Source: a virus
Taxonomy: Duplodnaviria > Heunggongvirae > Uroviricota > Caudoviricetes
Length of the DNA: 35,620 nt
Reading direction: 5' to 3' (one strand)
IMG/VR virus record: IMGVR_UViG_3300029643_000041
Made by a program: the position numbers and the translations under genes. Shown piece after piece: positions 56-34,964 of this stretch; position 1 is the first letter of the stretch, and every line of letters begins with the position of its first letter. The notes beneath the pieces were generated by a model. It had not been told where the DNA came from and ran no database searches. It worked only from the letters and a program-made list of their open reading frames with translations.

Positions 56-99
56 CCCATCAACCCCGCCATTTCGGTTCAAGGTTGATGGGTTTTTTG
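56..99 (+). terminator. Host-side hairpin plus T-run overlapping attL
   Basis: cccatcaacc / ggttgatggg 10-bp stem with about 17-nt loop, followed by tttttt; the 3' arm and the T-run lie in the att core. Confidence 0.45.
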
Positions 100-113
100 T
101 TGCCTGAAATTTA
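88..113. repeat. attL core, 26-bp direct repeat atgggttttttgttgcctgaaattta
   Basis: Exact copy of the sequence at 34939-34964; lies just outside ogr, where P2/186 phages carry att. Confidence 0.75.
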
Positions 114-16679: not shown

Positions 16680-17330
16680 TCAGCGGCTGTCATTGCGCAG
16701 TCTGCGCTCCAGCTGCTGTTTGTCTTTTTTCACGCCACAGCGGGGATCGAGCTGTAACGCATGGTTGAGATGATTAAGGGCGGAAGCCGGATTGCTTTCA
16801 CTCAGGACAGCGCCAATCGCTTTATGCAGACGCGCCCGTGACTGGTCCGGCATATCCAGACCGTCTGTCAGCTCCAGCGTCTGCAGCAACAGATCGACAT
16901 CGAAGCCGGTAGTGGCAAGCATTGCGCTCTGTGCCGCGTCTGCCATTTCCTCTGCCAGCACGGTCTGCACGTTGCGGTTACCCAGCGGCATCACCCAGCC
17001 ATGACGCAGAGCATGACGCCCAATCTCCAGCGCCCCGGCATAATCGCCGGCATCAATGCGCCACAGCATCACGTACATCAGCACGTCATCCTGTTGAGCG
17101 CCTCCGGCAGCCAGGACACCCTCCGCCCAGGCGGCGTACTTTGGCAGCAGCTCCACTTTGATTTCCGCTTTTTTGACCGTGGACTGAACGCCCTTGAGGC
17201 GGCGGCGGTCTTCCGCCAGTTGCAGCAGCATCAGGTCATAGCCCGACGCGTGGCGAACACTGCCACCCTCACGAGCGGCCTGTTCAGCCTGAACGCGCAG
17301 GCGATGCTGCCGTGCGGGACTCAGGCTCAT
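16680..17330 (-). CDS. M: Terminase small/endonuclease subunit M
   Basis: 216 aa; recognised as gpM family (…YDLMLLQLAEDRRRLKG…DDVLMYVMLWRIDAGDYAGALEIG…). Confidence 0.85.
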   Translation of the reverse strand: MSLSPARQHRLRVQAEQAAREGGSVRHASGYDLMLLQLAEDRRRLKGVQSTVKKAEIKVELLPKYAAWAEGVLAAGGAQQDDVLMYVMLWRIDAGDYAGALEIGRHALRHGWVMPLGNRNVQTVLAEEMADAAQSAMLATTGFDVDLLLQTLELTDGLDMPDQSRARLHKAIGAVLSESNPASALNHLNHALQLDPRCGVKKDKQQLERRLRNDSR

Positions 17331-17333
17331 GGG

Positions 17334-18392
17334 TTACGCTCCGGCTTCTGCTGCAGCGGCGCTAAAATCGCCAATCTGGATGTTTTCCACCAGTGCTGCG
17401 CAGCGGTAGTCCTCAACCACATAGGCTTCGTTAACGGATTCAAAGTTTTCAATCCGGTCACGTTTCGGGTTGTCGATAACTGAACGGCGGCGGGTGTCTT
17501 CCTGCCAGTAGATGGACAGGTTATCCAGACGGGTGATCAGCAGCGCATTCGGCGGGAAGAATGGCGCACGCACGGCCTGCAGGCCACCCATGCGTTTCTG
17601 GCTGATGATCATATCGGCAGCCAGTTTTTCACTGTTTTCCTGCTCTTTGTTGACCAGCGGGAAATACTTGTCAGACAGCAGTTCACGACCGCAAATCACC
17701 ACCAGATCGTCATCGTCCTGGTAGACCACGTCGATAAGCTCATTGACCGCATCCATCACTACAGCGTCCAGGTTGGCATATTCGCCACCTTTGCCGACTT
17801 TCACTGCGCCCGGTGTGGTTTCACCGCCCGTGGTGGTGCTGCCCATGACGTGATCCGGTGCATCCTCACGGATTTTCTGCAGCCAGCCTTTGTTCACATC
17901 CTGCAGCAGCGGGTTTTCGCTACGGTTGGAGGTTTTCGCACGCTTCACGCCGTTAAAGCCGATCATGATGCGGTCCAGTGCCTGACGTTTCACGATGGCG
18001 TCACGGATACGCACCTGGAAATCCTGAAACTTCGCCCACAGGTCCAGCTTCGCGTAGGTCAGCACCGTGTCAAAGTTGGTCTGCTCGCATTTATATTCCA
18101 CATCGACCATCAGCGTCGGATCGACAGGCTCACGCTCTTTTGCGGTGGTATCAGTGGTTCCGGCAATGGTGCTGCCAACACCCAGCCCCAGCAACTGACC
18201 AGACTGCTCAGTCACTGGCGTGACATTAATCAGCGTCAGGAATGCGGCGGATTGCTGGATCTGGTCTTCCAGCGTCTGCTGCACAGACGGCTCTACAGTG
18301 AACTTGCTGGACAGTTCTTCAACTGCCACACCGTTCAGACGCGCCAGCTGCTGCAGGTAAGCGTTAAAAGCAAAGCGGGTATTCTTCTTCAT
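17334..18392 (-). CDS. N: Major capsid protein N
   Basis: 352 aa (P2 gpN is 357 aa). Confidence 0.9.
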   Translation of the reverse strand: MKKNTRFAFNAYLQQLARLNGVAVEELSSKFTVEPSVQQTLEDQIQQSAAFLTLINVTPVTEQSGQLLGLGVGSTIAGTTDTTAKEREPVDPTLMVDVEYKCEQTNFDTVLTYAKLDLWAKFQDFQVRIRDAIVKRQALDRIMIGFNGVKRAKTSNRSENPLLQDVNKGWLQKIREDAPDHVMGSTTTGGETTPGAVKVGKGGEYANLDAVVMDAVNELIDVVYQDDDDLVVICGRELLSDKYFPLVNKEQENSEKLAADMIISQKRMGGLQAVRAPFFPPNALLITRLDNLSIYWQEDTRRRSVIDNPKRDRIENFESVNEAYVVEDYRCAALVENIQIGDFSAAAAEAGA

Positions 18393-18408
18393 CAGGTTTT
18401 GTGCTCCA

Positions 18409-19242
18409 TCAGCAATTGGTCAGAGTGTCAGCGGGGGCGTTACCGCCTGTTGCACGCTGGCGGTAGTCCTGGCGGCTGTCTTCATGACTCAGCTTATTCA
18501 CCAGTTCGTTAAAGGCGGTCTGCTGTGCCTGCAGGGCAGTCTCCAGCTCAGACAGACGTTCTTCCTGCTCAGACAGGGATTTTTCGGTGCGTGCGCTCAG
18601 GTTCTGCTGCTCAGTGGCAACCAGCTCCACGGCCTTATGCACATCAGAGAACCGGGCGTCATCGGACTGCTCTTTTTTGGTAAACAGCGCCGTGACACGG
18701 GCAAACAGGGACGGCTTGTCCTCCTGGATTTCTTCCAGTTCGATCACCGTTTCCTCTGCAGCGGTAAAAAGATTGGCGGGATTCTGCTTGCGGTTTGCCA
18801 GCGGGTTATGGGCTGCACTGGCGCTGAATGTCAGCATTTCCGTACCCAGACTGGCGGGATCATCAGTGGCAGCCAGGCCGACCAGGTAGGCTTTGCCCGT
18901 ATCAGCAAACTTCGGGCTGACTTCCATAGAGGTGAATAATTTCTGGCCTTTTTTCACCAGCTCCACCAGGGACTCCGTTGGCTCAACGTCGGCATACAGC
19001 GCCATCTTGCCCGCCAGCGGACCTTCCGTGATTTCTTCAGCAAACAGCGCCGTCACCTTGCCGTAGCGGTTAAAGGTGCTGTCCGGCAGATAAGACTTGA
19101 TGTGCTCAAGGTTAATCAGCGCGGTATACACCGCCGGGTTGTAGCTGGCTGCCATCTGTTCCAGCCATTCACGCTGGATTTCGCGTCCGTCGGTGGTGGC
19201 ACCTTCCACCCCGATGCGAAAACGCTTTGCTTTCACTGTCAT
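18409..19242 (-). CDS. O: Capsid scaffolding protein O
   Basis: 277 aa (P2 gpO is 284 aa). Confidence 0.9.
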   Translation of the reverse strand: MTVKAKRFRIGVEGATTDGREIQREWLEQMAASYNPAVYTALINLEHIKSYLPDSTFNRYGKVTALFAEEITEGPLAGKMALYADVEPTESLVELVKKGQKLFTSMEVSPKFADTGKAYLVGLAATDDPASLGTEMLTFSASAAHNPLANRKQNPANLFTAAEETVIELEEIQEDKPSLFARVTALFTKKEQSDDARFSDVHKAVELVATEQQNLSARTEKSLSEQEERLSELETALQAQQTAFNELVNKLSHEDSRQDYRQRATGGNAPADTLTNC

Positions 19243-19384: not shown

Positions 19385-21151
19385 ATGAACACCACACTGA
19401 CACCCGCAGATCTCGATCCCCGTCGGCAGGCCATGCTGCTGTACTTTCAGGGATACCGCGTAGCCCGCATTGCTGAAATGCTGGGCGAGAAAGTTGCAAC
19501 CGTTCACAGCTGGAAAAAACGCGACAAGTGGGGTGACTATGGGCCGCTGGATCAGATGCAGCTCACCACCGCCGCACGCTACTGCCAGCTCATCATGAAG
19601 GAGCACAAAGAAGGGAAAGACTTTAAAGAAATTGACCTGCTGGCGCGCCAGTCGGAGCGCCACGCGCGGATCGGCAAGTTTAACAATGGCGGCAACGAAG
19701 CCGACTTAAACCCTAACGTCGCCAACCGCAACAAAGGCCCGCGCCGTCAGCCGGAAAAGAATGTTTTCACCGATGAACAGATTGAGAAGCTGGAAGAAAT
19801 CTTCCATTCCTCCATGTTCAACTACCAGCGCCACTGGTGGGAAGCCGGAAAAACCAACCGCATCCGCAACCTGCTGAAGTCACGCCAGATCGGCGCGACC
19901 TTCTATTTTGCCCGTGAAGCCCTGATTGACGCCCTGCTAACCGGACGTAACCAGATTTTCCTTTCCGCCAGTAAGGCACAGGCCCACGTCTTTAAACAGT
20001 ACATCATCGACTTCGCCAAAGAAGTGGAGGTGGAGCTGAAAGGCGATCCGATGGTGCTTCCCAACGGGGCCACTCTTTACTTCCTCGGCACCAATGCCCG
20101 CACGGCCCAGAGTTACCACGGCAACCTGTATCTGGATGAATATTTCTGGATACCGAAATTCCAGGAGCTGCGCAAAGTGGCTTCCGGTATGGCTATTCAC
20201 AAAAAATGGCGACAAACCTATTTTTCCACGCCATCCAGCCTGACCCACAGTGCTTATCCGTTCTGGTCCGGTGCGCTGTTCAACCGTGGACGCAACAAAG
20301 CCGACAAGGTGGACATCGACCTGTCCCATAGCAATCTGGCCCCCGGCCTGCTGTGCGCAGACGGGCAATACCGCCAGATAGTCACCGTGGAAGATGCGGT
20401 GCGCGGCGGCTGTAACCTGTTCGACCTTGACCAGTTGCGCATGGAGTACAGCCCGGACGAATACCAGAACCTGCTGATGTGCGAGTTCGTGGACGATCTC
20501 GCGTCCGTGTTCCCGCTCAGCGAGCTGCAGGCGTGCATGGTGGACAGCTGGGAAGTCTGGACCGACTTTCATGCACTGGCCCTGCGCCCGTTTGGCTGGC
20601 GCGAGGTGTGGATCGGTTATGACCCGGCAAAAGGTACGCAAAACGGCGACAGCGCCGGATGCGTGGTGGTGGCACCGCCAGCCGTGCCGGGCGGTAAGTT
20701 CCGCATTCTTGAGCGTCACCAGTGGCGCGGGATGGACTTCCGCGCCCAGGCTGACGCCATCAAAAAACTGACCGAACAGTACAACGTGACCTATATCGGC
20801 ATCGACTCGACGGGTGTCGGTCACGGGGTTTATGAAAACGTGAAAGCGTTTTTTCCAGCCGTCCGGGAGTTTGTCTACAACCCCAACGTTAAAAACGCCC
20901 TGGTACTCAAGGCCTACGACATTATCAGTCACCGTCGTCTGGAGTTTGACGCCGGACACACCGACATAGCGCAGTCATTTATGGCAATCCGTCGCGCAAC
21001 CACCGCCAGCGGCAACCGCCCGACCTATGAAGCAAGCCGCAGTGAAGAAGCCAGCCATGCCGATCTGGCCTGGGCAACAATGCACGCACTGTTTAACGAA
21101 CCGCTGCAGGGCGAGTCCGCCAATACCAGCAATATTGTGGAGATTTTTTGA
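19385..21151 (+). CDS. P: Terminase large (ATPase) subunit P
   Basis: 588 aa (P2 gpP is 590 aa); divergent from O. Confidence 0.9.
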   Translation: MNTTLTPADLDPRRQAMLLYFQGYRVARIAEMLGEKVATVHSWKKRDKWGDYGPLDQMQLTTAARYCQLIMKEHKEGKDFKEIDLLARQSERHARIGKFNNGGNEADLNPNVANRNKGPRRQPEKNVFTDEQIEKLEEIFHSSMFNYQRHWWEAGKTNRIRNLLKSRQIGATFYFAREALIDALLTGRNQIFLSASKAQAHVFKQYIIDFAKEVEVELKGDPMVLPNGATLYFLGTNARTAQSYHGNLYLDEYFWIPKFQELRKVASGMAIHKKWRQTYFSTPSSLTHSAYPFWSGALFNRGRNKADKVDIDLSHSNLAPGLLCADGQYRQIVTVEDAVRGGCNLFDLDQLRMEYSPDEYQNLLMCEFVDDLASVFPLSELQACMVDSWEVWTDFHALALRPFGWREVWIGYDPAKGTQNGDSAGCVVVAPPAVPGGKFRILERHQWRGMDFRAQADAIKKLTEQYNVTYIGIDSTGVGHGVYENVKAFFPAVREFVYNPNVKNALVLKAYDIISHRRLEFDAGHTDIAQSFMAIRRATTASGNRPTYEASRSEEASHADLAWATMHALFNEPLQGESANTSNIVEIF

Positions 21152-22179
21152 TGGGAAAGAGTAAAAAAAAACGCGCTGCGGCGACGAACCAGATCCAGCA
21201 TAAAAGCCAAGCTTCAGCCGAAGCATTCAGCTTCGGTGATCCCATTCCAGTACTTGACCGCCGCGAACTGCTGGACTATGTGGAATGCGTACAGACAGAT
21301 CGCTGGTATGAGCCTCCCGTCAGCTTTGACGGACTGGCGCGCACCTTCCGCGCTGCCGTGCATCACAGTTCACCAATTGCAGTGAAATGCAACATTCTGA
21401 CCAGCACCTACATCCCTCACCCGCTTCTCAGCCAGCAGGCTTTTTCGCGTTTTGTGCTGGACTATCTGGTATTTGGTAACGCCTACTTGGAGAAACGCAC
21501 GAACCGATTCGGTGAAGTTATCGCCCTTGAGCCTGCGCTGGCAAAATACACCCGACGCGGGTTAGACCTGGATACCTACTGGTTTGTACAATACGGTATG
21601 ACAACCCAGCCGTATCAGTTCGCGAAAGGCAGCATTTTTCATCTGATGGAACCGGACATCAACCAGGAGATCTACGGCCTGCCCGGTTATCTTTCTGCCA
21701 TTCCGTCAGCCCTGCTCAACGAGTCCGCCACGCTGTTCCGCCGCAAGTATTACATTAACGGCAGTCATGCAGGCTTCATCATGTATATGACTGACGCCGC
21801 GCAGAACCAGGAGGATGTGAACAACCTCCGCAACGCGATGAAAAGCGCCAAAGGACCGGGCAACTTCCGTAACTTGTTTATGTACTCGCCTAACGGCAAA
21901 AAGGACGGGCTTCAGATCATCCCGTTGTCAGAAGTTGCAGCGAAGGATGAATTTCTGAATATCAAGAACGTGAGCCGGGACGACATGATGGCGGCACACC
22001 GTGTGCCGCCGCAAATGATGGGGATTATGCCGAATAATGTTGGGGGGTTTGGGGATGTGGAGAAAGCTAGTAAGGTTTTTGTGACAAATGAATTAGTACC
22101 TCTACAAAAAAAAATCCATGAATTTAATCAGTGGATAGGGATGCATATTATCAATTTCTCAGAATATAATATAGATTAA
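21148..22179 (+). CDS. Q: Portal protein Q
   Basis: 343 aa (P2 gpQ is 344 aa); start overlaps the P stop. Confidence 0.9.
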   Translation: MMGKSKKKRAAATNQIQHKSQASAEAFSFGDPIPVLDRRELLDYVECVQTDRWYEPPVSFDGLARTFRAAVHHSSPIAVKCNILTSTYIPHPLLSQQAFSRFVLDYLVFGNAYLEKRTNRFGEVIALEPALAKYTRRGLDLDTYWFVQYGMTTQPYQFAKGSIFHLMEPDINQEIYGLPGYLSAIPSALLNESATLFRRKYYINGSHAGFIMYMTDAAQNQEDVNNLRNAMKSAKGPGNFRNLFMYSPNGKKDGLQIIPLSEVAAKDEFLNIKNVSRDDMMAAHRVPPQMMGIMPNNVGGFGDVEKASKVFVTNELVPLQKKIHEFNQWIGMHIINFSEYNID

Positions 22180-22202
22180 TTATATATACATCCCTCTAAC
22201 CT

Positions 22203-22886
22203 TTAAGGCATTCTATTCTCAAAAACATGCTTTATCGCAGTGGTAAAGCATCTATCTTTTACATTCTTTTTAAACTCATCAAAGACCATAGATCTAACAT
22301 CTTCAATTTCACATCCTGATTCAATAAGCTGAGATGCACATCCGACCAGTTCCTTTATTAATGTCATGCTTAATTCTATTGCACGTCTTCTTTCCGCCTT
22401 GACTCCTCCTGAGGACGGGTTTAAGTTAAATACTCTTAACGTAACCTCTGCCATTTTGTGTTCTTTCTCATTCAAGCCTTCTCTAATATGAACATCACCA
22501 TTTTCCAAAAAATGGAAAAAAACATCTGGATTTTGTCTATCAGCTTTAATTAAATCATCATCGTTATATTTTTGCTTATCCTTATAAAACCCACACCTTT
22601 GCGGCTCACCACATGAGCCAAACAAATTAGACCACTCGAAAGTTAAATTTTTGTAATAACTTTTCCTGTAAAAATGTTCAATATGCCTCTCAACTTTATT
22701 TTTGCCACCACTTTTATGATGCTCTATTTTTTTCTCGCAATAAGCACATAATTTACCTTGCATTTTTATTATTTCTTCCCATATTTCTTTTTTATCATTT
22801 GATGATAGGGAATTCCAATCATCCCTCCTATAGTCAAATTTATTAAGAACGGAAGGCCCTGGCATTTGCCTAGATAGATATTTCAT
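22203..22886 (-). CDS. HNH endonuclease, Septu PtuB-like retron effector component
   Basis: 227 aa; CAYCEKKIEHH...VERHIEHFYRK...CGEPQRC HNH/zinc motif; start overlaps the ATPase stop (ATGA); strongly AT-rich. Confidence 0.8.
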   Translation of the reverse strand: MKYLSRQMPGPSVLNKFDYRRDDWNSLSSNDKKEIWEEIIKMQGKLCAYCEKKIEHHKSGGKNKVERHIEHFYRKSYYKNLTFEWSNLFGSCGEPQRCGFYKDKQKYNDDDLIKADRQNPDVFFHFLENGDVHIREGLNEKEHKMAEVTLRVFNLNPSSGGVKAERRRAIELSMTLIKELVGCASQLIESGCEIEDVRSMVFDEFKKNVKDRCFTTAIKHVFENRMP

Positions 22887-24517
22887 TTTACATCCTTACT
22901 TCCAGAAAAGTGCTGATTTATCTTATTTTTGAACTCCAAAACAGATATAAGATCATCACACTCTTGAACTAAAGGATGGTCTAATCCGAAATGTTTAATA
23001 ACTTTTTCTCTTAACAAAAGAGCCTCGTCACTGCTATAACGATTAAGCTCAACCAATTTTTTATATTCTTCAAGCCAACCATTTTCTTTAGTAGAGGGTA
23101 TAGGATCAGTTCTCATTCCATATAAAAGTGCATCCTGATTACTAACACCTTTTATTTGATAGTCGGGGTGAGACACTATCAAATCATTAACACCATCTAC
23201 TTCCACTTCCTGTAGAATACGCACTGAACGAGAGCTAACAGTGGATAAAACCTGTGGGCTATGGGTAGTAATTACAAATTGAACATTTGGGAATGTAGAT
23301 GTCAAACGCTCAATAATTGTCTGTTGCCATTGCGGATGCAAATGCAAATCAATTTCATCAATTAAAACAATCCCATATCCCAATAGAGGATTAGATAAAT
23401 TTGGATTAAGTAAAATTAAACGTCGAGCCAAATCACCAACTAAAGTAAATATAGTTTTCTCACCTTGAGACAACTGTTGAATATCTAATTCAACCTCTCC
23501 TTTTTTAAGGATAATCTTATAATCATCATCACCATAAACAAGCTTAATCCACTGAAATTCAGGCAAGAACTTTAGAATGGTATTTATAACACTATCATAA
23601 AGTGATACTGCATTATTAAACTTATGTTCTCCTGATTGCAGAGATTTCATGTAGTTCAATTTTTCTTTAAGCGAAAGCTCTAAACCTTTTATAACTGTTG
23701 AATCAATATTATCAATCGCAGATAGTTGAGTTAATGTTGCTTTCAAACTCTGAATATCTGAAAATAACGCATTGATTGTCGTTTGTGACTCACTCAATTT
23801 CTCTTGTGAAGCTCTGTTATGAAGAAATACAAGCCATTGAAAAAAATCGGTAAAATCATTTCTGTCAAACTCGATTTCATCATACACATCGAATTTTGAC
23901 CATACAGTTTTAGTTTTAGCATTTTTTCTTTTCCTATCAACCCCACCGCCTATATAAGAACGCGCAATAGAATAATATGCCATCAAAGGCAAGCTTGCAT
24001 TATCAACATATTTATTCACAAGTCTATAAATACTTGCAAGTTTTTTTATCTCCAACAATTCATTATTTCTAGAATAATATGCCCCCTCTTTCGCTTTAGT
24101 AATCAAAATACTGGTATTAAAGTCCTTGAGTTTTATATTTGCATCAATTGATGCATACTCAACATCAACAGAGTTATTAACTTCATGGCTTTTAATATAA
24201 GTACCAGGCTTACTCTCCTTTTCAATATTTGATCTCAACCAACTCAAAACAATTGCTATTGCATCCAAAATAGTGCTTTTACCGAATCCGTTATCCCCGA
24301 CAAAAACAGTCAAATCATCTTCTAAAGAAATCTGTAGTTCTCTTATCCGTTTAAAATCATGTATACCTATTTTATTTAAATGAAACTTACTCTCATTTAA
24401 AGTAGATATTAGCTTTTGAAGCTCAACAGACTCCTTCAAATAATCCTCGTTTATCACATGTGATTCCAACTCTAAAAAATCAACATAGCAAGTCTCTAAA
24501 TTCATTTTATTTATCAT
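22883..24517 (-). CDS. P-loop ATPase, Septu PtuA-like retron effector component
   Basis: 544 aa; Walker A VFVGDNGFGKST, Walker B VLIDEIDLHLHP, then ITTHSP; translationally coupled to the RT upstream and the HNH downstream. Confidence 0.8.
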   Translation of the reverse strand: MINKMNLETCYVDFLELESHVINEDYLKESVELQKLISTLNESKFHLNKIGIHDFKRIRELQISLEDDLTVFVGDNGFGKSTILDAIAIVLSWLRSNIEKESKPGTYIKSHEVNNSVDVEYASIDANIKLKDFNTSILITKAKEGAYYSRNNELLEIKKLASIYRLVNKYVDNASLPLMAYYSIARSYIGGGVDRKRKNAKTKTVWSKFDVYDEIEFDRNDFTDFFQWLVFLHNRASQEKLSESQTTINALFSDIQSLKATLTQLSAIDNIDSTVIKGLELSLKEKLNYMKSLQSGEHKFNNAVSLYDSVINTILKFLPEFQWIKLVYGDDDYKIILKKGEVELDIQQLSQGEKTIFTLVGDLARRLILLNPNLSNPLLGYGIVLIDEIDLHLHPQWQQTIIERLTSTFPNVQFVITTHSPQVLSTVSSRSVRILQEVEVDGVNDLIVSHPDYQIKGVSNQDALLYGMRTDPIPSTKENGWLEEYKKLVELNRYSSDEALLLREKVIKHFGLDHPLVQECDDLISVLEFKNKINQHFSGSKDVK

Positions 24518-25452
24518 TATTTGTTTCCTTCCATCAGGAACTTAGTTATTAACTCACAACCATATTTTTTTTGTAACCTTAATAAAAAATCACCCTCCAA
24601 ATAATTTGCAAACGCAATCATCCCTTTGGTTTTATTTATTTCTTCGGAAGATAAGAGTCCCAAAGAATATTTATGAATCTTTGCAAACAGCATCCTTTTA
24701 CGATCGCGACCAATTGATAAATTGCCCTGAGGTGTAAGTGTTACACCAGTCACGTGCCGATTATGAGCCATCGATGTAAAAATTGTTTTAGATTCATTGA
24801 TTGATAGACCGGGAACATGGAGCGACAACATTTTTTTTACCACCTTAGGAACCCTGCACAATATATCCTTAATATTAGTTGAAAAAGTTATATCATCTGC
24901 ATACCTTGAATAAGTGATACCATTGTTACGGCACCAATCATCAAGACTCTTGTCAAAGTCATACATAACAAAATTACTAATAAATGGTGAGCTTGGCGCC
25001 CCTACACTTAATATCAACGTTGTACTTCTCTTTTTTCCCGGACGCCAAAAAAGCAAATTACGTAGGGTGTTCTCATCAAATGAATCCAATTTCAGCCCTG
25101 TGTTCTCAAGTTTCGAGAAAAATATATCAGGTTTAATTTTGTTAAAGAAGTTCTGAAAATCCATTTTAAGAATATAATTATTATCTTTATGCAACAATGC
25201 ATTATCTTTAATACTTTTTTTATATTCATATGCCATTGCCTTATGATGAACAGGCAGCTTTGGCTGTAGCAAAGATACTATAAATCTCTGTACGTTTTTT
25301 AGTTCCTTTGTCGGCTGAGCTATCACCCGAAAACCTGCGCCACGTTTAGGAATATAATAAACTTTATATTTTTTGGGGGCCTCATTTAAAAGTAATTGGA
25401 AAGCTAATCTATTATAATTAAACTTACTGATAATTTTAGAAGTTAGTTGCAT
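24517..25452 (-). CDS. Retron-type reverse transcriptase
   Basis: 311 aa; ILKMDFQNFF, SVGAPSSPFISNF, YSRYADDITF (YxDD box) and the retron-typical VTG triplet (HNRHVTGVTL); AGAGGGG Shine-Dalgarno before the ATG; preceded by a structured non-coding region. Confidence 0.85.
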   Translation of the reverse strand: MQLTSKIISKFNYNRLAFQLLLNEAPKKYKVYYIPKRGAGFRVIAQPTKELKNVQRFIVSLLQPKLPVHHKAMAYEYKKSIKDNALLHKDNNYILKMDFQNFFNKIKPDIFFSKLENTGLKLDSFDENTLRNLLFWRPGKKRSTTLILSVGAPSSPFISNFVMYDFDKSLDDWCRNNGITYSRYADDITFSTNIKDILCRVPKVVKKMLSLHVPGLSINESKTIFTSMAHNRHVTGVTLTPQGNLSIGRDRKRMLFAKIHKYSLGLLSSEEINKTKGMIAFANYLEGDFLLRLQKKYGCELITKFLMEGNK

Positions 25453-25700
25453 ATAACCCCTCTTAAAACCAAAGCGCCATGCAACTTTACATAGCGCTTT
25501 GACTCTTCACTAAAGACAGCGAAAGACACAGATTTCTCCTTCGCATATCTGCCCCGGGCAGGGATGCGAAGGAGAAATCTGTGTCTTTCGCAACCCTAAA
25601 CCGGACAATAAATTTAAGCCTGGCTAATCACCCGGCTGGAACCAATGTTCCTACACTAAAGAGCGTAATGATTTTAATGAACAAATAGATATAAGGCAAG
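25453..25700 (-). ncRNA. Candidate retron msr-msd non-coding RNA (limits approximate)
   Basis: Non-coding stretch directly 5' of the RT on the same strand; 28-bp perfect inverted repeat (arms 25519-25546 and 25564-25591, 17-nt loop) consistent with an msd stem; smaller hairpins at 25638-25651 and 25461-25490. Flanking a1/a2 repeats were not resolved by eye. Confidence 0.5.
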
Positions 25701-25704
25701 GCGC

Positions 25705-25735
25705 GCGCTCGTATCCCCGCCACGCCTGCCCGCTT
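25705..25735. other. cos-like GC-rich motif (candidate cohesive-end site)
   Basis: Minus-strand ggcgtggcggggatacgag matches 14 of 19 positions of the P2 cohesive end GGCGAGGCGGGGAAAGCAC as I recall it; lies between the Tum-module terminator and the retron. Confidence 0.3.
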
Positions 25736-25770
25736 TATGTAGTGGTTTTCATGCACCTGCATGATCTACG

Positions 25771-25797
25771 CAAAAGCCCGCCAGTTCTGGCGGGCCT
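25771..25797 (-). terminator. Rho-independent terminator closing the SOS/Tum-like operon
   Basis: Minus strand gcccgccag-aa-ctggcgggc followed by ttttg. Confidence 0.6.
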
Positions 25798-25930
25798 TAG
25801 CAAAAACGATCCTCAAACGATCATGCGATCTCATGCGGCATAGACATGCACTACAGAGCTAACGCCTCGCAAGGGCTCGTTGTTCAACCTTGCTGACGCC
25901 AGAAACAAGTTCAGACGCCAGCAACGTTTC

Positions 25931-26164
25931 TTAATGCAGCCAGCTGTCGTCTTCCCACACCTTCTGCATAATTTTCATCACTTGTTTTCTTTCTTCGTCC
26001 AGTTGCAGTCCGGTCAGTTCCACACCGTTAGAGCTACCTTTGCGGATACGAATTACCGTTTTGGGATACAGGGGGCGCAGATTGCGGTAAAGCTCGGATT
26101 CAAGGGCGTCCAGTGTAGACTGGCTAATCTTCTGCTCTTTATCGATCATTATTTCAATGCGCAT
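25931..26164 (-). CDS. DinI-family protein (Tum-like antirepressor C-terminal module)
   Basis: 77 aa from the internal Met with a GAGGTG Shine-Dalgarno; MRIEIMIDKEQKISQSTLDALESELYRNL...VWEDDSWL parallels E. coli DinI (MRIEVTIAK...). Confidence 0.8.
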   Translation of the reverse strand: MRIEIMIDKEQKISQSTLDALESELYRNLRPLYPKTVIRIRKGSSNGVELTGLQLDEERKQVMKIMQKVWEDDSWLH

Positions 26165-26174
26165 AAAAGTCACC

Positions 26175-26363
26175 TCAGCTGATGACATCCATTGAGCGGT
26201 TGTATTCGTGGGTTCTGATTTTTGCCATGAGTTCATCTGTCAGTTCAGAAACCCACTGCAGGGCCAGCCCCTTCTCTTCATCACTACACTCACTAGCCGC
26301 TACAAGCTTAAGAAAAAAATCAATGCGCTGGAGCTTCAAAGACTCCAAAAAATAGTCCTGCAT
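26175..26363 (-). CDS. Small acidic protein, first gene of the LexA-controlled operon (possible Tum N-terminal module)
   Basis: 62 aa ORF starting about 30-60 nt downstream of the LexA box; ends 10 nt before the DinI-like start. Confidence 0.45.
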   Translation of the reverse strand: MQDYFLESLKLQRIDFFLKLVAASECSDEEKGLALQWVSELTDELMAKIRTHEYNRSMDVIS

Positions 26364-26405: not shown

Positions 26406-26421
26406 CTGTTTATGTTTACAG
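26406..26421. promoter_or_regulatory. LexA operator (SOS box) CTGT-N8-ACAG
   Basis: ctgtttatgtttacag, overlapping a TATACT -10 element with a TTTACA -35 on the minus strand; an adjacent half-site tactgtatatata at 26389-26401. Confidence 0.65.
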
Positions 26422-26515: not shown

Positions 26516-28888
26516 TTAATACAGGTTTCGCCACTTATCATCTTCCTGCAAACGCTGGTTCCGATAGAAGATACGTAGGCCTGCTCCTGACGGAATACTG
26601 CCGCCGCGAAGCAGTAAATCGACCTCTTTCTCGCTGCCATCAAATCCCCTGGACTTCAGTTCATACACGAGCTGCAGTCGCTGATGGTCTGTAATTCGCT
26701 GTTTGTAGTCTTTACGCCGTTTCGGTTTCACCAGGCGTAACCTTGCTGCCAGTTCCCGGCGCTCTTTTTTGCTCATACTGTGCAGGTAATCGTGCAACTC
26801 CTTGTCATCCATGCGGGTGATATCCGTTCTGGTATCTCCATCAGTTGATTTGTCTTTCCCTTGTTGGTACAAATTTTCAGCAAGGGGACAGTTATTGCCA
26901 CGAGTCCAAGGGGCGCAAGCGCCCTGGTCGGCTGCCGCCTCCTGAACGTCAACGGCTTTACGAACCATTTTCCACTTCACTGCATGAGTGCAGATCTTAC
27001 CCTCTGCAATGGGTGACCAGATGCCATAAATACGAATACCGTGATCGCCATAGGCGGTCGGCTCTTCGTTAATTTCATAAGCTGTTCTGATAAGGTGATA
27101 TTTGCGGGGAACCAGCACGCCGCCCTGCTTCATGATGTAGGTGGCAAAACAGCCAGCATCAGCAGCAGCCAGGATGGCATCAAGGCGTGGGTTATCCAGT
27201 ACCGGCGCACCTGCTTTTTTGTCCCCCTGCTGCCTTGCCGCCTGACCAGCCAGCAATCGCAGTTCACGGTAAGCCTGACGCCCCGGAATACCAAAGAAGC
27301 GGAATTGCTGAACACGATGCAGAGACGCCCAGGCATTAACGTATTCAGCGTTATCACGCAGGGATTTACCCGTTTCCTTGCTGATCTCACCAGCCAGACC
27401 ACGCCCGTCAATGTTCTTACTGATGTATTTCGCGATGTAGCTTGTTGGCGTACCTTTGCGCGGGTTTATCAGCTCAGACTTAAAGCGTGGTCCCGTGTTA
27501 TTACCCAGCTCCTCGCGGTCTTCACGAATGGCAAACTTACGCAGTAATGCAGTGATGGCGCGGCGGTCTTTTTTGCGCATAAAACACAACAGGTGCCAGT
27601 GAACTGTACCGTCATGATGCGGCTCAGCCACCCGCACGCCATACCAGCGCAATCCGGCTTTGTGCATCGCCTTACGAAATGCAGCAAACATGCCGACCAA
27701 ATAATCACTGCTTTGTCTTACTGTCGCGTTGGTCCAGGTCGGGTTTGGCCTGCCGTTATTTAGCGTGGAATGGAAACGTGACGGACAGGTGATGGTGTAG
27801 AAAACGGCGCAGTCACCACGCATTTCCGCGATAAGCTCCAGGCCTTTAACACAGGCCATCATCTCGTTGCGGCGATGCGCCGGGTTGCTGCTGCTGGCGT
27901 TTACCACATCCTCCATGTTCAGCGTGTCGCCGTCTTCGTTCACCAGTTCATGAGAACGGAAAAACTCCAGCGACTTACGGCGCTGCTCACGTTTATGCAT
28001 CACGGCTTCATAGCTGACATAGGGAGATGCTTTTTTGCTGACCAGGCAGACAGCACGCAACTGCTCTTCCCGCCATTCGCAACGCATCTTCCATAATTTC
28101 CGATACCACCAGTCGGCGCACAGCATACGCGCCAGCGAACCCGGAATGAGTTCATAAGGCACAGGTTTGCGGCGGTTTCTTTTCCGGCGGAGTTGCTCAA
28201 ACGCAGGCGGTATGACATCCAGTCGCAGGGTTTCTGCAGCCACCTTTTCCCATGTCTTGCGGATTTCTTCTGGCTTAACATCATCGGTGGCATACAAATC
28301 ACCACAAGCTACATCAAGGCACATACTCATATGCGCAGCTACCAGGGTGGACAGGCGTTTCACCTGATCCTGACTCATTTCAGGCAGAATCAGCAGGCCG
28401 TCCAGCCCTTCATGGCTTGCCATAAAGCGAAAAGAAGTGGATAGCTGACTGTCGCGTACATGCTCCAGCCGTTCCAGACATGGCTTAATCGTCTCACGCA
28501 AATAGCGGGAATAAGCCTTTGGCCTGCCAAGGCTGCTGAAGTATTCAATACGTTGCATCAGCGGCTTGCTGATATGGGAAGGCTGGGCATTGACGTCCGC
28601 CAGAATGACCATATCTGGATTAAAACGCTGCTGCTCATGCGCCAGCTTTGCCCGACTAATGAGCTTATCCTGCTCCATTTCGCGCTGGACAGGATCACGG
28701 GATTCATTAAAGAAATAACGCTCCCAGACCTGATCACTCAGTACCTCGCGGCGCAGGTGTTCCTGCTCGTTATCGGCAGCGTACAGAGCGATCAGGTTTG
28801 AAAGCGCAGAAACTGAAGATTGCTCTTCTGTCTCTACGTAAGGATTGATTGCTTTTTTCTCAGCATTCCAGGAATAGCTGTAGTTCAT
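26516..28888 (-). CDS. A: Rolling-circle replication initiator endonuclease A
   Basis: 790 aa (P2 gpA is 761 aa); contains the [10 protein letters not shown] metal-binding motif region of the GPA family. Confidence 0.9.
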
Positions 28889-33272: not shown

Positions 33273-33458
33273 TTTTTGCTTTTATATCTGCGCCTAATAT
33301 AACAATGAGCCGCAGGCTAACCGCAAAAGTCACATACTCACATAGCAAAAAATAGCCAACTTCATTATGGCTTCAGTGAGATGTATGGTCGCAAGATTTC
33401 ATACATTGACACTGGTTATACATACAGTAAAAATGCTCTCTATTGGAGGGCATTTTTT

Positions 33459-34490
33459 ATGGCAGTACGAAAACTCACCACAGGAAAATGGCTTTGCGAA
33501 TGTTACCCCGCCGGACGTAGTGGGCGTCGTGTGCGTAAACAATTCGCCACCAAAGGCGAAGCACTGGCTTTTGAGCGTCACACGATGGAAGAAACCGAAG
33601 CAAAGCCCTGGCTGGGCGAATCAGTAGATCGTCGAACCCTGAAAGACGTGGTTGAGCTATGGTTCAAACTACATGGTAAATCTCTGACTGCTGGGCAGCA
33701 TGTCTATGACAAATTGCTGCTGATGGTTGACGCTCTGGGCAATCCCCTTGCAACCGATCTCACATCTAAAATGTTTGCCCATTATCGAGATAAACGACTG
33801 ACAGGTGAGATCTACTTCAGCGAGAAATGGAAGAAAGGGGCCAGCCCGGTCACCATTAACCTGGAGCAAAGCTATCTAAGTAGTGTTTTTAGCGAACTAT
33901 CCCGCCTGGGCGAATGGTCGTATCCAAACCCACTGGAGAACATGCGAAAATTCACCATCGCAGAAAAAGAGATGGCATGGCTTACCCATGAGCAGATTGT
34001 TGAACTGCTGGATGATTGCAAACGTCAGGACCCAATTCTGGCACTGGTAGTCAAGATATGCTTAAGCACAGGCGCACGCTGGCGAGAAGCAATAAACCTT
34101 ACCCGCTCACAGGTGACCAAATACCGAATTACCTTTGTCAGAACGAAGGGGAAGAAAAACAGAAGCATCCCTATCAGTAAAGAGCTTTACGAAGAGATCA
34201 TGGCGCTCGATGGGTTCAATTTCTTCACAGACTGCTATTTTCAATTTTTATCCGTGATGGAAAAAACGTCTATCGTGCTCCCTCGCGGTCAACTGACACA
34301 CGTTCTGCGCCATACGTTTGCGGCGCATTTTATGATGTCGGGTGGAAATATCCTTGCTTTGCAAAAAATCCTCGGACATCACGACATAAAAATGACTATG
34401 CGTTACGCACATCTAGCACCGGATCACCTGGAAACTGCATTACGGTTTAATCCGCTGGCAACACTACCAACATCAATAGCAAGTTTTTGA
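33459..34490 (+). CDS. int: Tyrosine integrase
   Basis: Start at MAVRKLTTGKW (P2 Int begins MAIKKL); C-terminal HVLRHTFAAHFMMSGGNILALQKILGHHDIKMTMRYAHL catalytic region. The track ORF begins 26 codons upstream. Confidence 0.9.
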   Translation: MAVRKLTTGKWLCECYPAGRSGRRVRKQFATKGEALAFERHTMEETEAKPWLGESVDRRTLKDVVELWFKLHGKSLTAGQHVYDKLLLMVDALGNPLATDLTSKMFAHYRDKRLTGEIYFSEKWKKGASPVTINLEQSYLSSVFSELSRLGEWSYPNPLENMRKFTIAEKEMAWLTHEQIVELLDDCKRQDPILALVVKICLSTGARWREAINLTRSQVTKYRITFVRTKGKKNRSIPISKELYEEIMALDGFNFFTDCYFQFLSVMEKTSIVLPRGQLTHVLRHTFAAHFMMSGGNILALQKILGHHDIKMTMRYAHLAPDHLETALRFNPLATLPTSIASF

Positions 34491-34938: not shown

Positions 34939-34964
34939 ATGGGTTTTTTGTTGCCTGAAATTTA
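34939..34964. repeat. attR core, 26-bp direct repeat
   Basis: Exact copy of 88-113; lies downstream of int and is followed 5 bp later by the stop codon of a host TetR-family gene. Confidence 0.75.

Follow-up and report, generated by a model that had tools for sequence, protein, structure and literature searches.

A very probable P2-family cos site bordering an Ec78/Eco7-type retron in the cos-to-portal slot of a P2/186-type prophage

The window analysed here is the whole 35,620-nucleotide stretch of IMG/VR virus record IMGVR_UViG_3300029643_000041 (Caudoviricetes). It contains a complete P2/186-type prophage with intact genes for terminase, capsid, scaffold, integrase and GPA. The prophage is framed by a perfect 26-nt att direct repeat, ATGGGTTTTTTGTTGCCTGAAATTTA, the two copies of which lie 34,851 bp apart from start to start, and this distance is the length of the phage genome. 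The prophage is within the size range of phage SEN8 (35,203 bp). The gene order, namely A (minus strand), DinI (minus strand), cos, cargo and Q (plus strand, reading toward cos), is the order found in P2 and 186. The framework consists of the following features.

88..113, plus strand: att direct repeat, 26 nt, left copy (repeat search)
16680-19242, minus strand: scaffold, capsid and small terminase genes
16680..17330, minus strand: small terminase gpM (Pfam Phage_term_smal, 138 bits)
19385..21151, plus strand: large terminase gpP (Pfam Terminase_6N, Terminase_6C and Terminase_5)
21148..22179, plus strand: portal gene Q (TIGR01540, 362 bits)
26516-28888, minus strand: replication gene A
33381-34490, plus strand: integrase
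34939..34964, plus strand: att direct repeat, 26 nt, right copy (repeat search)

The Ec67 prophage has been described as a 34-kb element between 26-bp direct repeats (PMC7826664, citing Hsu et al. 1990), and the att repeat of the window may represent the same attachment site.

The DNA next to Q is occupied by a cargo cassette, all of it on the minus strand.

22203..22886, minus strand: PtuB HNH endonuclease effector (NF041761, 160.7 bits against a cut-off of 150)
22883..24517, minus strand: PtuA-type ATPase effector (NF041760, 472 bits, slightly under the cut-off of 500)
24517..25452, minus strand: retron reverse transcriptase (RT), St85 family (NF038233, 321 bits against a cut-off of 235)
25461..25598, minus strand: putative retron msd region, a long hairpin (Rfam RF02058 STnc400, 71.4 bits, E = 1e-13; gathering score 80)
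25600..25664, minus strand: putative retron msr (Rfam RF00170, 45.9 bits, E = 6.5e-7; gathering score 52)
25671..25699, minus strand: promoter-like site with -35 TTGCCT at 25699-25694, a 17-bp spacer and -10 TAAAAT at 25676-25671 (a consensus match only, 9/12)

The cargo is an Ec78/Eco7-type retron, made up of a promoter-like site, a putative msr-msd, RT, PtuA and PtuB, in which the promoter-like site would, judging from its consensus match, provide promoter activity. The Rfam matches to msr and msd had very low E-values, yet both were under the gathering scores of their models. RF02058 STnc400 is catalogued as a gammaproteobacterial sRNA; it looks like the msd part of St85/Ec78-type retrons instead. 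The same retron locus was found in 4 of 5426 complete E. coli genomes with 99.8% identity, where the RefSeq annotation reads retron Ec78 ptuB. Strains 98208, 98233 and FORC_082 are among the carriers.

On the other side of the cargo, beyond the candidate cos site, lies a putative SOS operon.

25771..25797, minus strand: predicted intrinsic terminator of the SOS (tum/DinI) operon (hairpin fold; within the extended cos region)
25931..26164, minus strand: DinI/Tum-like gene, last gene of the putative LexA-controlled operon (NCBIfam DinI model, E = 5.8e-11, below the curated cut-off)
26175..26363, minus strand: 62-aa ORF, first gene of the SOS operon (without NCBIfam match)
26406..26421, no strand assigned: LexA box, a perfect CTGT-N8-ACAG upstream of the operon (the only zero-mismatch match in the window)

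In vB_EcoM-813R9 and Fels-2, the position of the 62-aa ORF is taken by an annotated hypothetical protein. The succession of LexA box, 62-aa ORF, DinI-like gene and terminator mirrors the p95-tum-t95 layout of phage 186. The initial annotation had proposed a LexA-controlled operon ended by a strong terminator, and the LexA box, the DinI-like gene and the hairpin were all present; at the sequence level they point to LexA control and to termination at the hairpin.

Three features define the candidate cos site between the SOS operon and the retron.

25701..25755, minus strand: 55-bp cos core, comprising a 29-bp right flank TGCATGAAAACCACTACATAAAGCGGGCA, the 19-mer GGCGTGGCGGGGATACGAG and CGCGCGC (P2-versus-P4 comparison)
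25708..25726, minus strand: predicted 19-nt cohesive-end sequence GGCGTGGCGGGGATACGAG (likeness to P2-family cohesive ends)
25756..25851, minus strand: right-hand extension of the packaging signal, a putative terminase recognition region (TGCAT/GCAT motifs at fixed nick distances)

When the window was read directly, the minus-strand 19-mer GGCGTGGCGGGGATACGAG was located at 25708-25726, with the plus strand at 25700-25729 reading ggcgcgcgctcgtatccccgccacgcctgc, and the 13-mer GGCGTGGCGGGGA was placed at 25714-25726 (minus strand). The motif reported in the initial annotation is thus present, but the coordinates 25711-25729 given there were 3 bp off. A 44-aa ORF that spans cos (25628-25762, minus strand) was treated as spurious.

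The limits of the core were set by comparing P2 with P4, which gave a 29-bp right flank, the 19-nt end and 7 bp of the form (Y)GCGCGC, P4 parting from P2 7 bp past the cohesive end. PMC5694545 credits a 55-bp core to Ziermann and Calendar 1990; functionally, cos would have the limits that conservation suggests. The annotated ends of P2, 186, PSP3 and P4 were anchored at the cohesive end and aligned without gaps. Over the core, the window was identical to P2 at 42/55 positions, to P4 at 43/55, to 186 at 44/55 and to PSP3 at 45/55, and the alignment to P2 and 186 bore out the resemblance to the P2 cohesive end that had been noted earlier. A degenerate core built from P2, P4, 186 and PSP3 scored 47/55 at 25701-25755 (minus strand), as against 31 at the runner-up site over both strands of the whole window and a maximum of 34 over 30 shuffles. 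The 55-bp core match is unique in the window and far above chance.

Within the core, the 19-mer itself was identical to 186 and PSP3 at 15/19 positions and to P2 and P4 at 14/19. Its opening 13 bases fit exactly (13/13) the GC-rich form GGCG(A/T)GGCGGGGA with which the 19-nt ends of P2, P4, 186 and PSP3 begin, whereas its last six bases are TACGAG in the window as against AAGCAC or AAGCAT in these phages. Four of these last six bases are unlike those of 186 (ATACGAG versus AAAGCAT), so that cleavage would rely on a co-evolved terminase. The flanks are also those of P2, P4, 186 and PSP3, with TGCAT.AAAACC...AAGCGGGC on the right, GCGCGC on the left, and TGCAT repeats at -100, -110 and -124. The 13-mer alone, allowing up to 2 mismatches, gave 2 matches in the window against 1.78 expected, which is not significant, and a search of the window for the 186 19-mer with up to 3 mismatches gave no match, the real difference being 4 mismatches. 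Significance was therefore drawn from the 55-bp core.

A database search revealed that the records of PSP3, Erwinia EtG and SEN8 terminate exactly at the base aligned with 25727, and that the records of Smp131 and Cartapus start inside the cos site. The nick geometry was borrowed from the record annotation of 186 and PSP3, in which the top strand is cut at the 5' end and the bottom strand at the 3' end. The nicks are accordingly predicted at 25727/25726 on the minus strand and at 25708/25707 on the plus strand, which would leave 19-nt 5' overhangs. Mapped virion ends for a phage with the exact 19-mer were not found in the literature; SEN8 is an isolated infectious phage, the announcement of which gives ggcgtggcggggatacgag as cos, assigned during annotation (PMC5427200).

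The position of the site agrees with the family as well, since in P2, P4, 186 and PSP3 cos lies between the replication/SOS genes and portal gene Q, as in the window. The distance differs, the DNA from cos to Q being a 3.5-kb cargo in the window and 167-177 bp in P2 and 186. We consider it very probable that 25701-25755 (minus strand) is the cos core of a complete 34.85-kb prophage of the P2/186/Fels-2 type, which carries an Ec78/Eco7-type retron in the slot between cos and Q. This reading is based on sequence homology, uniqueness of the site, its position, the variability of the cargo among relatives and the presence of the packaging genes. By homology, cleavage would take place at the predicted bases and the TGCAT repeats would have a role in packaging.

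The similarity to the family extends beyond the core on one side. TGCAT/GCAT motifs occur at about -29, -36, -100 (25823-25826), -110 (25833-25836) and -124 (25846-25850) from the nick, and in the ungapped, nick-anchored alignment these positions are common to the window, P2, P4, 186 and PSP3, while the DNA between the motifs has diverged. The motifs at about -100, -110 and -124 are candidate small-terminase binding repeats, and they are kept in the satellite P4 too. Terminase recognition may thus be placed on the SOS-operon side, as far as about 25851. Towards the retron, conservation ends 7 bp beyond the cohesive end, at 25701. The conserved packaging signal would cover the terminator of the SOS operon, and not the cargo. 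It had been expected earlier that the retron promoter and msr would overlap the packaging signal. This did not hold: the -35 starts 2 bp past the edge of the core, and msr, the match to which starts at 25664, lies 37 bp from the core and 6 bp downstream of the end of the -10. The neighbour that overlaps would be the opposite one, because the conserved signal runs to about 25851 over the terminator and stops at 25701 on the retron side.

The hairpin that shares this region reads GCCCGCCA-GAAC-TGGCGGGC and then UUUUGCGU on the minus strand. Its minimum free energy was -25.1 kcal/mol (z = -5.3), and 0 of 200 shuffles folded as well, in agreement with the strong terminator that had been assigned to 25771-25797. 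It presents a GC-rich stem followed by a U-run 3' of the last operon gene, the U-run having only 4 U. A simple terminator scan did not list the hairpin at 25771-25797, likely because the A-U extension of the stem consumes part of the U-run. A GCCAG..CTGGCG palindrome is found at the terminator position in 186, PSP3, Fels-2 and SEN8 also. It is possible, though we think it rather unlikely, that the hairpin is mainly a structural part of the packaging signal and that termination is incidental, terminator and cos forming one composite element. In 186 and PSP3 the palindrome lies at an equal distance from the nick and is devoid of a U-run, the terminator annotated in 186, t95b, is located further upstream, and P4 has a GCGCC..GGCGC palindrome at that position, all of which would fit such a structural role. 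However, P2 has no clear palindrome there, and the hairpin of the Fels-2 group has a UUUU tail and lies 134 bp after the DinI stop, so that it looks like an operon terminator.

The interval on the Q side of cos was compared among relatives by an exact search of IMG/VR with the identical 36-nt core, which returned at least 120 viral contigs. Among the 120 matches listed, at least about 80 unrelated sequences begin directly after CGCGCGC. Where the DNA suffices, the distance from cos to Q ranged from 143 to 3521 bp among the matches listed, and Q was convergent in all bar one; the present retron spacer, at 3521 bp, is the largest cargo among them. Spacers at the short end of this range (143-175 bp) are comparable to those of P2 and 186 (167-177 bp) and look like an unoccupied slot. 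In the window and the matches listed, variation is confined to the Q side of cos, where it begins 7 bp after the cohesive end. The exception in orientation is IMGVR_UViG_3300011853_000021 (L070), in which the portal gene is upstream of cos on the same strand, the only such case among the matches listed; this arrangement may be a rearrangement or a misassembly.

At least five other RT-containing cargos, in addition to Ec86, occupy the same slot, and all are transcribed from cos towards Q. The RTs of the cargos at loci L024/L040, L045/L068, L089 and L073 are 24-32% identical to the RT of the window.

Named phages of the Felsduovirus and Elveevirus group behave similarly. The 19-mer with CGCGCGC is identical in Fels-2, SEN8, Cartapus and vB_EcoM-813R9, and the right flank including the terminator hairpin is identical or nearly so. 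In all four, similarity ends after CGCGCGC and differing genes follow up to the convergent portal gene. These phages thus carry cargo between cos and Q, as in the window, and the cargos of the group comprise an HNH endonuclease with a hypothetical protein, a DUF4145 protein, a Hypoth_Ymh protein and a 565-aa hypothetical protein. An apparent similarity to Klebsiella phages reaching 14 bp past the core was rejected, being a BLAST extension through chance matches into unrelated cargo.

Retron Ec86 occurs in the same setting. Using a query sequence which we take to be the Ec86 RT, IMG/VR contigs were matched at 100% identity. These Ec86 loci (L134-L142) present DinI, GGCGTGGCGGGGATACGAG CGCGCGC, the Ec86 cassette and a convergent Q. 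They have exactly the cos sequence of the window, a DinI protein with 100% identity to its counterpart there and a Q protein with about 93%. The two differ in the type of retron, the window carrying an Ec78/Eco7 retron with St85-family RT, PtuA and PtuB and the Ec86 loci the Ec86 cassette. They differ also in the distance of the promoter-like site from the core, 2 bp in the window versus about 22 bp in the Ec86 loci. The initial annotation had placed the retron on the Q side of cos, and this placement stands, as relatives with identical cos carry other cargo there and Ec86 occupies the same slot.

This layout was already published in 1996, a point missed in that annotation. The title of Dodd and Egan 1996 reportedly places retrons Ec67 and Ec86 of 186-related prophages between cos and the portal gene, and is said to have the terminator of the portal operon (tW/tQ) as the Q-side bound of the cargo. 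In this last respect the window departs from the title, for a portal-operon terminator tQ/tW is absent from it.

The same interval is described as a hotspot between cosL and the gpQ homologue (PMC5694545). Rousset et al. 2022 describe the cos-proximal gpA-gpQ locus of E. coli P2-like phages as a defence hotspot that includes retrons (PMC9122126). As that report delimits it in the part relevant here, the hotspot spans gpA to gpQ as a whole, with no distinction between the sides of cos, whereas the window and at least 120 relatives vary on the Q side only.

The other border of the cargo lies within Q. The stop codon of Q (22179) and that of the ptuB/HNH gene (22203) are separated by 22 AT-rich bases, ttatatatacatccctctaacc, and, as noted earlier, this spacer between Q and ptuB harbours no cos-like sequence. 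No tQ/tW-like hairpin was found in 22180-22202, and the cargo is not bounded by a portal-operon terminator. A plus-strand terminator-like hairpin, ATGCTTTATCGCAGTGGTAAAGCAT, with a T-rich tail is present at 22227-22251, inside the 3' end of ptuB and 48 bp past the Q stop; tQ being missing, it could be a substitute terminator of the P-Q operon.

The GC content is about 0.5 up to about 22100, where it falls to 0.25, and it rises again at 25700. The last ~23 codons of Q are AT-rich (GC 0.25), like the cargo, and belong to the variable module, the reach of which into Q is about 70-80 bp; on comparison with a Klebsiella relative, nucleotide similarity of Q is regained about 68 bp into the gene. Because of the GC shift, the resumed Q similarity and the cargo-like Q codons, the exchanged module is roughly 22110-25700, the end of Q included. 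Across relatives (loci L014-L133) the 3' end of Q, roughly its last 10 codons, differs in nucleotide sequence, with a composition matching that of the adjacent cargo, which suggests that recombination between the cos core and a site within Q swaps the cargo modules. A C-terminal Q motif resembling ..FE.Y.L appears to be retained among relatives.

If the insertion of the retron had removed a left flank needed for packaging, the motif would be a dead remnant of cos, the prophage would be defective and virion DNA with a terminal retron would not exist. P2, 186 and PSP3 do share an extra stretch of similarity left of the core (GGTGG.GC), which the window lacks, and the retron-bearing locus is present in only 4 of the 5426 complete E. 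coli genomes. But the 55-bp P2/P4 core is present in full; P4, a satellite packaged by P2 terminase, likewise loses its similarity to P2 7 bp past the cohesive end; the isolated phage SEN8 carries the same core and then unrelated cargo; at least about 80 different cargos follow an identical core among the 120 matches listed; and the packaging genes are all full length. We therefore regard a dead remnant as very improbable. That the true cos adjoins Q as in P2 and 186, with 25708-25726 a chance GC-rich match and the retron on the replication side like P2 old/tin, is hardly credible: the cos sites of P2 and 186 are indeed only 167-177 bp from the portal stop and the accessory genes known there, old and tin, are on the opposite side of cos, but a cos in the 22-bp AT-rich spacer between Q and ptuB was rejected, there being no competing site above 31/55 elsewhere in the window, and the right flank of 25701-25755 matches Fels-2, SEN8 and other relatives.

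With 25701-25755 as the cos core, the following course of events may be proposed. Upon induction, the terminase formed by gpM and gpP, both encoded here, would recognise the packaging signal, probably via the TGCAT repeats that extend to about 25851 on the side of the SOS operon. It would then introduce staggered nicks at 25727/25726 (minus strand) and 25708/25707 (plus strand), yielding the 19-nt 5' cohesive ends. As the retron fills the slot from the left edge of the core to the 3' end of Q, and adjoins cos on the Q side, it would come to lie at the left end of virion DNA. The linear molecule would begin with the 19-nt overhang, 8 bp of duplex and the promoter-like -35, the retron constituting the first ~3.5 kb of this end. 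In the prophage or the circular form, the terminator at 25771-25797 would shield the retron from read-through of the SOS operon.

Because the -35 sits 2 bp past the core and only 8 bp away from the nick in the bottom strand, binding or cutting of cos by terminase and transcription of the retron ncRNA and effector operon might be mutually exclusive, the retron being silent on genomes in packaging and on injected linear DNA, and switched on only once the ends are joined. We hold this to be very improbable. If true, a phage-borne defence system would have its timing switch built in, which might explain the cargo promoters found right at the boundary of the core.

The layout itself is already known, from Ec67 and Ec86 in 1996 and from the cos-proximal hotspot surveyed in 2022, and the locus is an ordinary P2-family cos with retron cargo. 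The present analysis fixes the cos site and the predicted virion ends for annotation of the window. It presents the retron as phage cargo that would be packaged at the very left end of the genome, in a place taken by many other defence genes in relatives. It also refines the picture for this cos type in two respects: the variable region is strictly Q-side, from 7 bp past the cohesive end through the last ~23 codons of Q, and the conserved packaging signal would span the terminator of the SOS operon, not the cargo.
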